Assembly (NCBI RefSeq): GCF_016026235.1
Contig: NZ_CP065613.1
Origin: Escherichia coli
Lineage (GTDB): Bacteria; Pseudomonadota; Gammaproteobacteria; Enterobacterales; Enterobacteriaceae
Direction: 5' to 3' (one strand)
Length of the DNA stretch: 64,000 nucleotides
The notes beneath the pieces are model-generated. The model saw only the letters and a list, made by a program, of their open reading frames with translations. It was not told the DNA's origin and ran no database searches. A program made the translations under genes and the position numbers. Positions within the stretch are counted from its first letter, which is position 1; the number at the start of each line of letters is the position of its first letter. Below, one piece after another: positions 3,661-4,020 of this stretch.

Positions 3661-4020
3661 GTCGGATGCGGCGTAAACGCCTTATCCGACTTACGGTTCT
3701 ACCCCTGCGTAGGCCTGATAAGACGCACCAGCGTCGCATCAGGCAACGGCTGTCGGATGCGGCGTGAACGCCTTATCCGACCTACGGTTCTACCCCTGCG
3801 TAGGCCTGATAAGACGCACCAGCGTCGCATCAGGCAACGGCTGTCGGATGCGGCGTGAATGCCTTATCCGACCTACGGTTCTACCCCTGCGTAGGCCTGA
3901 TAAGACGCGCCAGCGTCGCATCAGGCAACGGCTGTCGGATGCGGCGTGAACGCCTTATCCAACCTACGGTTCTACCCCTGCGTAGGCCTGATAAGACGCG
4001 CCAGCGTCGCATCAGGCAAA
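3661..4020. repeat. Tandem array of four 91-bp BIME/REP units
   Basis: Unit GTCGGATGCGGCGTGAACGCCTTATCCGACCTACGG...GCCTGATAAGACGC.CCAGCGTCGCATCAGGCAACGGCT recurs at 3661, 3752, 3843 and 3934 with few substitutions; each unit holds two inverted REP palindromes. Confidence 0.8.

Follow-up and report, generated by a model that had tools for sequence, protein, structure and literature searches.

REP and BIME elements have been known for about 40 years. The element type considered here, the variation of BIME-2 copy number between strains, and the identification of the cvpA-dedD locus of Escherichia coli as a BIME-2 are all already part of the literature. BIME-1 elements consist of a Y and a Z1 REP, occur in single copy, and have a long L linker, frequently with an IHF site; BIME-2 elements, for which we took the linker definition from the same source, have short linkers of the S and s/l/r types and no L linker (PMC3333891). 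Gyrase sites are over-represented in BIME-2, in which Y REPs are cut more than Z2 REPs (PMC6379681). The supplement of that study catalogs the K-12 locus as "BIMEs2 <cvpA-<dedD," with a length of 83 bp, and gives this one-unit allele two gyrase cleavage sites with rifampicin plus ciprofloxacin (RifCfx), one with microcin B17 (Micro), and none with either ciprofloxacin alone or oxolinic acid.

The closest studied analog is REP325, the naRNA1-6 cluster between yjdM and yjdN of K-12, on which the Rfam naRNA4 model was built. RNAs of the naRNA4 type have been proposed to bind HU and to condense the nucleoid (PMC4550694), a proposal contradicted by a preprint whose authors include Adhya, senior author of the earlier paper (bioRxiv 10.64898/2026.03.23.713779). 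According to the preprint, the effect of REP325 is local: it is a partial terminator that attenuates the gene downstream, partly through Rho, and it stabilizes the mRNA upstream. The preprint also reports that REP effects depend strongly on context and that terminal REPs are not generally tied to longer mRNA half-lives. A study cited in PMC12306157 (Liang et al. 2015) reported that REPs at a distance of less than 16 nt from a stop codon lower translation. The REP325 preprint mentions neither dedD nor cvpA, and the sole match of a full-text search for dedD, cvpA, and REP together was an irrelevant Aeromonas paper.

The DNA analyzed here is a stretch of 64,000 nt (64 kb) of an E. coli genome (hereafter, the window). 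Tandem Repeats Finder (TRF) reported an array at 3660-4019 with a period of 91 bp, 4.0 copies, 97% matches, and 0% indels, and its score (678) was by far the highest among the tandem repeats of the 64-kb window, three in number. When listed in register, the units are near-identical and can be told apart by 1 to 3 SNPs each. An inverted-repeat search found two different imperfect palindromes of opposite orientation in each of them, one of the Y type (arms GTCGGATGCGGCGT/ACGCCTTATCCGAC) and one of the Z2 type, inverted on the + strand (arms GCCTGATAAGACGC/GCGTCGCATCAGGC). Read along the + strand, a unit consists of the Y-type REP (TGTCGGATGCGGCGTGAACGCCTTATCCGACCTAC, 35 nt), a 14-nt linker (GGTTCTACCCCTGC), the inverted Z2-type REP (GTAGGCCTGATAAGACGC[A/G]CCAGCGTCGCATCAGGCA, 37 nt), and a 5-nt linker (ACGGC), replaced by AAACC in the final 5 nt of the array. 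GTAG is kept in seven of the eight REPs (the exception is the Y REP of unit 1), and all predicted hairpins contain internal mismatches or bulges, both hallmarks of REPs. The feature is a tandem BIME array of paired inverted REPs, as the initial annotation had described it, and can be refined to BIME-2: every unit has Y and Z2 REPs in alternating inverted orientation, the linkers are of 14 and 5 nt without an L linker, and the element is multicopy, with 4.0 tandem copies here and 0 to 5 units across complete E. coli genomes. The four copies and the near-identical units with paired, oppositely oriented REPs were right, as was the location between cvpA and dedD, which agrees with the RefSeq names on matching E. 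coli records; only the limits given (3661-4020) were off, by one base at most. The features of the region are collected in Table 1.

Table 1. Features of the array and its surroundings (positions counted from the first nucleotide of the window)
Feature	Position	Strand	Details	Basis
dedD, cell division protein DedD	4027-4689	-	stop TAA 4029-4027	ORF list, RefSeq names
BIME-2 array, four 91-bp units	3660-4023		3660-3750, 3751-3841, 3842-3932, 3933-4023	TRF and unit listing
Unit 4 Z2-type REP	3982-4018	+	first hairpin past dedD on the - strand transcript	
Unit 4 Y-type REP	3933-3967	-	stem variant CCAAC	
Unit 3 Z2-type REP	3891-3927	+	loop CGCC	
Unit 3 Y-type REP	3842-3876	-	GAATGCC variant	
Unit 2 Z2-type REP	3800-3836	+	DNA hairpin -12.9 kcal/mol, z = -6.1	
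Unit 2 Y-type REP	3751-3785	-	DNA hairpin -10 kcal/mol, z = -4.1	
Unit 1 Z2-type REP	3709-3745	+ (GTAG-first)	loop CACC	
Unit 1 Y-type REP	3660-3694	-	GTAA not GTAG; loop variant GTAAAC	hairpin search
naRNA4-like unit (inverted Y, 5-nt linker, Z2)	3894-3964	-	77.8 bits	Rfam RF02564
naRNA4-like unit	3803-3873	-	73.5 bits	Rfam RF02564
naRNA4-like unit (inverted Y, 5-nt linker, Z2)	3712-3782	-	79.5 bits	Rfam RF02564
Terminator-like hairpin and T-run	3586-3625	-	12 pairs, 6-nt loop, then TTTATT	
PurR-box-like ACGCAAACGTTTTC-N9-TAGAAT (-10-like)	3539-3567	-	cvpA-purF promoter region	
cvpA, colicin V production protein, downstream gene	3007-3495	-		ORF list, RefSeq names

All four genes of the region, with folC beyond dedD and purF beyond cvpA, are on the - strand, and transcription runs from folC through dedD, the array, and cvpA to purF. 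Nine nucleotides separate the dedD stop codon from the first (Z2) hairpin, the stem of which begins at 4017. Neither an intrinsic terminator (a GC-rich hairpin with an immediate T-run) nor a sigma-70 promoter was found within the array, and the sole terminator-like site between 3400 and 4200 lies downstream of it, 28 nt upstream of the PurR-box-like sequence. We take the 29-nt pattern ACGCAAACGTTTTC-N9-TAGAAT to be the operator for PurR and the -10 element of cvpA-purF. At least 120 species genomes within the Enterobacterales carry it without any change, and dedD is directly upstream of it in 111 of those listed. A per-sequence search for an ungapped stem followed by a T-run, which is strict and misses bulged stems, recovered such a hairpin in 62 of the 117 distinct sequences taken from other species, at a distance of 26 to 31 nt ahead of the PurR box; its arms vary in a compensatory manner (e.g., GGGCAATTCCT/AGGAATTGCCC and GCGGCGAAGA/TTTTCGCCG). 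RNAalifold, applied to a global MAFFT alignment of the terminator region of 117 species in which the arms were misaligned, returned no consensus hairpin. The conserved layout is therefore that of a dedD stop codon, a variable gap, a terminator, and the cvpA promoter, with the array occupying the variable gap. Because the terminator-like hairpin downstream keeps its position across the Enterobacterales, this anatomy suggests that the array is probably within the dedD 3'UTR.

Some observations concern dedD itself. The folC stop region and the start of dedD overlap by 11 nt (4679-4689), as would fit a folC-dedD operon whose genes are translationally coupled. Within dedD, the Pro/Lys-rich linker of DedD contains a 24-bp tandem repeat (4337-4384; two copies, 79%). 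The gene is 12 nt shorter in some E. coli strains (651 versus 663 nt; e.g., HCP5S3_I2), and a recurrent 12-nt size difference (1016 versus 1028) corresponds to this indel inside dedD and not to the array; that the indel is tied to the repeat of the Pro/Lys-rich linker is only a guess.

Other REP-related sequences are scattered along the window. A BIME-1-like element at 22218-22331 is made up of a Y REP, a 34-nt L-type linker (...AAATTCAATAGATTG...), and an inverted Z-type REP; the linker sequence AAAGTGTGCAAATTCAATAGATTGTGATTCAATT has one mismatch to the IHF consensus, and this type is expected to bind IHF. At 16833-16920 there is a lone pair of Y and inverted Z2 REPs (one BIME unit) with a linker of ca. 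9 nt, which scores below the Rfam naRNA4 gathering score. Finally, a 25-bp tandem repeat at 13337-13408 (2.3 copies, 96%) is made of half-REPs of the GTCGGATGCGACGC type and overlaps a hybrid REP, Y-like in its arms and Z-like in its center (ATGTCGGATGCGACGCTGGCGCGTCTTATCCGACCTAC). Apart from the naRNA4-like units of Table 1, the only Rfam match above gathering in the window was a tRNA gene at 39372-39443 on the + strand (RF00005, 63.4 bits).

The flanks of the array were matched in 5,425 of 5,426 complete E. coli genomes. We sampled copy number with two systematic sets of 60 rows, taken at even steps down the ranking of 5,425 genomes, and read the number of units from the flank-to-flank distance, which was informative in 118 genomes. 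One unit was found in 80 of them (68%), three units in 14 (12%), four in 13 (11%), and none in 4 (3%), while two and five units were found in a single genome each (<1%); the remaining 5 (4%) were rearranged or partial. Allele sequences were also read directly and contained one unit in K-12, two in O145 RM9467, three in ST131 strain 4993, four in O157:H7 FRIK944, FDAARGOS_943, and the window, five in 2021CK-01784, and none in KGu016; CRECJHTL34 had two units, one with a half-deleted Y. The alleles of 0, 1, 2, 3, 4, and 5 units are exact 91-bp steps apart. Copy number is thus variable between strains, as had been anticipated from the sequence. Its proposed use as a strain marker was overstated, since about two-thirds of the sampled genomes have the one-unit allele and alleles mostly follow broad lineages, but the locus does serve as a coarse lineage marker, with one unit in K-12-like strains, three in ST131, and four in O157:H7 and the lineage of the window.

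Near-identical direct repeats, TGCCTGATGC at the Z2 start and TGCC(C/A)CGATGC past the array on the - strand, flank the last unit; those bracketing the array end are at 3646-3659 and 4008-4018 (TGCCTGATGC and TGCACGATGC on the - strand). Relative to the one-unit allele, the 0-unit allele of KGu016 lacks exactly 91 bp between these repeats, as would be expected if slippage or unequal exchange had removed them. Three of the four closest relatives of the window have four units, and one has two. The nearest genome, FDAARGOS_943, is 100% identical over the flanks and 99.9% identical with the array included. The GAATGCC variant of the unit 3 Y REP is found at the same position in FDAARGOS_943 and O157:H7 FRIK944, and the order of the Z2 loops (CACC, CACC, CGCC, CGCC) is common to the window, FDAARGOS_943, and O157:H7. 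These are examples of unit-specific SNPs whose order is the same in all three, and the four-unit allele is therefore inherited and old and not recurrently regenerated.

Over the cvpA-dedD flanks (positions 3200-4500 of the window), only 6 of the 5,425 genomes reach at least 99% identity, most being at ca. 97 to 98%, and the 3' end of dedD has many synonymous differences relative to most E. coli genomes. The nearest relatives of the window are FDAARGOS_943, O125ac:H10 C 236-04A, and EC2641. Judging from these identities, the window comes from a sparsely sampled lineage or from a recombinant segment.

We then looked at the same site in other species by scanning 111 syntenic species for E. coli-type REPs with blastn-short. 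Among the species listed, E. coli-type Y/Z2 REPs were found at the site only in E. coli (one unit in the GTDB representative) and Escherichia albertii (two units). Several Citrobacter species have, in the same place and orientation, a pair of Z-like and Y-like REPs of their own or a lone Y-like REP. From this counterpart pair we infer that the single unit probably predates Escherichia and that the 0-unit allele of E. coli is probably a secondary loss. In other genera, the gap that runs from the dedD stop codon to the terminator is filled by unrelated tandem palindromes of the CCCTCTCCC...GGGAGAGGG type, for instance, 7.2 copies of 59 bp in Pseudocitrobacter faecalis and 3.4 copies of 43 bp in Enterobacter sp. 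ENT03, as well as those of Lelliottia and Pseudenterobacter. In 40 of the 111 species listed, the gap contains one or more perfect GC-rich hairpins with a length of at least 7 bp.

With regard to folding, the energies of the Y and Z2 REPs as single-stranded DNA, calculated with DNA parameters, are those given for unit 2 in Table 1. As RNA, the - strand from 4035 to 3580 (dedD stop codon through cvpA promoter) has a predicted folding energy of -234 kcal/mol (z = -11.3), with local stems for most of the eight REP hairpins; in the minimum-energy structure, inner Y REPs pair across neighboring units. In an alignment of 24 distinct units, which came from ten alleles of E. coli together with E. albertii and REP325, each of the predicted hairpin pairs is kept in most or all sequences, and compensatory double changes were found at three base pairs, one of them being a U-A pair of the Y stem at the cvpA-dedD locus that is C-G in REP325.

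Taken as a whole, these data are best explained, with a probability that we would set at roughly 85%, by a BIME-2 array amplified from an older unit and acting as a 3'-end barrier or attenuator and as a gyrase site. The roles as an mRNA 3'-end barrier or attenuator and as a gyrase site are the most likely ones by analogy with the systems described above. An older single Z-Y unit would have been amplified by unequal recombination or by replication slippage between units, so that different E. coli lineages carry from 0 to 5 of them. As in REP325, the folC-dedD transcript would read into the array and fold into up to eight stable hairpins, which could block 3'-to-5' exonucleases, thereby stabilizing the upstream message, and partially attenuate read-through towards the PurR-regulated cvpA-purF. 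The first hairpin, given its distance from the dedD stop codon, lies in the range (<16 nt) where REPs have been reported to reduce translation of the gene before them, as cited in PMC12306157. At the DNA level, the Y REPs would be preferred gyrase cleavage sites, and the array may therefore be a multi-site gyrase target or a topological buffer lying between two transcription units that run in the same direction. The array is neither an IHF site nor a coding region.

The initial annotation had credited such arrays with the binding of both IHF and gyrase. Gyrase binding applies at least to the K-12 allele, with its published cleavage sites (PMC6379681). That the array is an IHF-binding BIME of the RIP/RIB type is extremely unlikely: BIME-1 elements do bind IHF (PMC3333891), but nothing in this is specific to the cvpA-dedD array, which has no L linker of ca. 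34 nt, is in tandem and not in single copy, and has linkers of 14 and 5 nt. The IHF consensus WATCAANNNNTTR has no match within 3660-4023 and two in the window, at 23870 and 28788, and an L linker is present, in contrast, in the BIME at 22218-22331. Since the array is a BIME-2 and lacks the IHF consensus, the IHF attribution is dropped for this subtype. Similarly hard to credit is that the array is a product of assembly expansion or collapse, or else a set of real small protein-coding ORFs. Tandem repeats are indeed prone to misassembly, and five ORFs on the + strand and four on the - strand, of 43 to 95 amino acids, overlap the array. However, each of the four units carries SNPs of its own, typical long reads are longer than the 364-bp array, and the same four-unit array recurs in other, independent complete genomes, those of FDAARGOS_943 (with one SNP difference), C 236-04A, EC2641, O157:H7 FRIK944, and more than 20 others; because the unit-specific SNPs keep their order in independent assemblies, an artifact is unlikely. 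As for the ORFs, 91 is not a multiple of 3, so that the reading frame shifts at each unit, and RefSeq annotates no CDS across the array interval in four-copy strains. Coding potential was rejected on these grounds, and the overlapping ORFs are very probably spurious, as had been supposed. The idea that the array, as proposed for REP325, is a source of processed naRNA4-like RNAs with HU-binding and chromosome-condensing activity would have in its favor three Rfam RF02564 matches above the gathering score (59.5 bits), located at the three internal Y-linker-Z2 junctions of the transcribed strand, together with the same architecture as REP325 and the naRNA4-HU effects reported in PMC4550694. It is nevertheless very unlikely, given that the role of a discrete HU-binding RNA is disputed even for REP325 and that the Rfam model recognizes essentially any Y-linker-Z2 junction, so that a match is no proof of a distinct RNA species.

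A more serious alternative is that the array is a functionally neutral or selfish repeat, derived from REP proliferation (with RAYT acting in trans) and slippage, tolerated in the 3'UTR, and drifting in copy number. Against a functional role, ca. 3% of the sampled E. coli strains, with otherwise normal complete genomes, are without the array, which is hence dispensable, and, with a conserved terminator-like hairpin already downstream, a further terminator is less needed. The context dependence described in the REP325 preprint and the lack of gyrase sites in the K-12 allele with ciprofloxacin alone or oxolinic acid also count against a functional role. There are degenerate alleles (that of CRECJHTL34, for example), the closest relatives differ (four versus two units), and in other genera the gap is taken up by palindromic repeats of unrelated families, as a permissive site predicts. 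TnpA-REP also promotes BIME recombination in vitro (PMC3333891). An association with RAYT (tnpA-REP) had been suggested for checking, and a tblastn search of the 64-kb window with K-12 RayT gave no significant match (the best E value was 0.017, over 29 amino acids); any RAYT involvement would therefore be in trans. On the other hand, the hairpins are maintained, three of their pairs having changed in a compensatory way, gyrase cleavage has been measured at the K-12 allele (PMC6379681), and the four-unit array with its SNP order is common to the lineage of the window and O157:H7, which argues for stability over long periods. We regard neutrality as possible, if somewhat improbable, and the neutral view and the preferred explanation, that of an amplified BIME-2 acting at the dedD 3' end and as a gyrase site, are compatible and not mutually exclusive. 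A bolder version of the preferred explanation, and an unlikely one, is that the heritable number of units (0 to 5) would work as a noncoding "dial" of DedD output, through the stop-proximal hairpin and protection of the mRNA 3' end, and of the insulation of the PurR-controlled cvpA-purF from folC-dedD read-through and supercoiling. On this reading, the unrelated repeat families in the gap of Citrobacter, Enterobacter, Lelliottia, Pseudocitrobacter, and Pseudenterobacter could reflect convergent selection for structure and not mere tolerance.

Beyond its correct annotation, the array matters little. The ORFs that overlap it, or any "naRNA4" gene call, are not to be taken as genes of distinct function. 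The natural alleles of 0 to 5 units, all in one defined 3'UTR, are a possible test bed for the model of REPs as terminators or stabilizers.

Among the known systems, BIME-1 (RIP/RIB) shares with the array an extragenic inverted REP pair, one of them of the Y type, but is single copy and has the ca. 34-nt L linker with an IHF site, both absent here. REPtrons, in which rayT is flanked by BIMEs, are built from REPs of these families as well (in K-12, rayT has Z2 and Y on its sides), although no RAYT gene is found anywhere in the 64-kb window. The resemblance to REPs that stabilize mRNA and down-regulate translation, of the malE-malF type (Liang, Rudd & Deutscher 2015), is in the position of a REP hairpin directly after the stop codon, at 9 nt here, within the <16-nt range as cited in PMC12306157. 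The K-12 allele has the same site, flanks, Y and Z2 REPs, and linkers, and its unit matches the fourth one of the O157:H7 array exactly (in + strand order), but there is one 91-bp unit versus the four of the window, and the dedD 3' end and flanks of the window are only ca. 97.6% identical to K-12-type records. REP325 differs in its period and copy number (100 bp and 5.8 copies versus 91 bp and 4.0), in its linkers (17 and 11 nt versus 14 and 5), and in the C-G pair of the Y stem that is replaced by the compensated U-A pair in the cvpA-dedD array (GTCGGAT/ATCCGAC). Along the transcript of the upstream gene, however, both have the order Z2, linker, inverted Y, and their Z2 arms are identical outside the loop; both are tandem BIME-2 arrays, and each occupies the 3' region in a pair of genes with the same direction.
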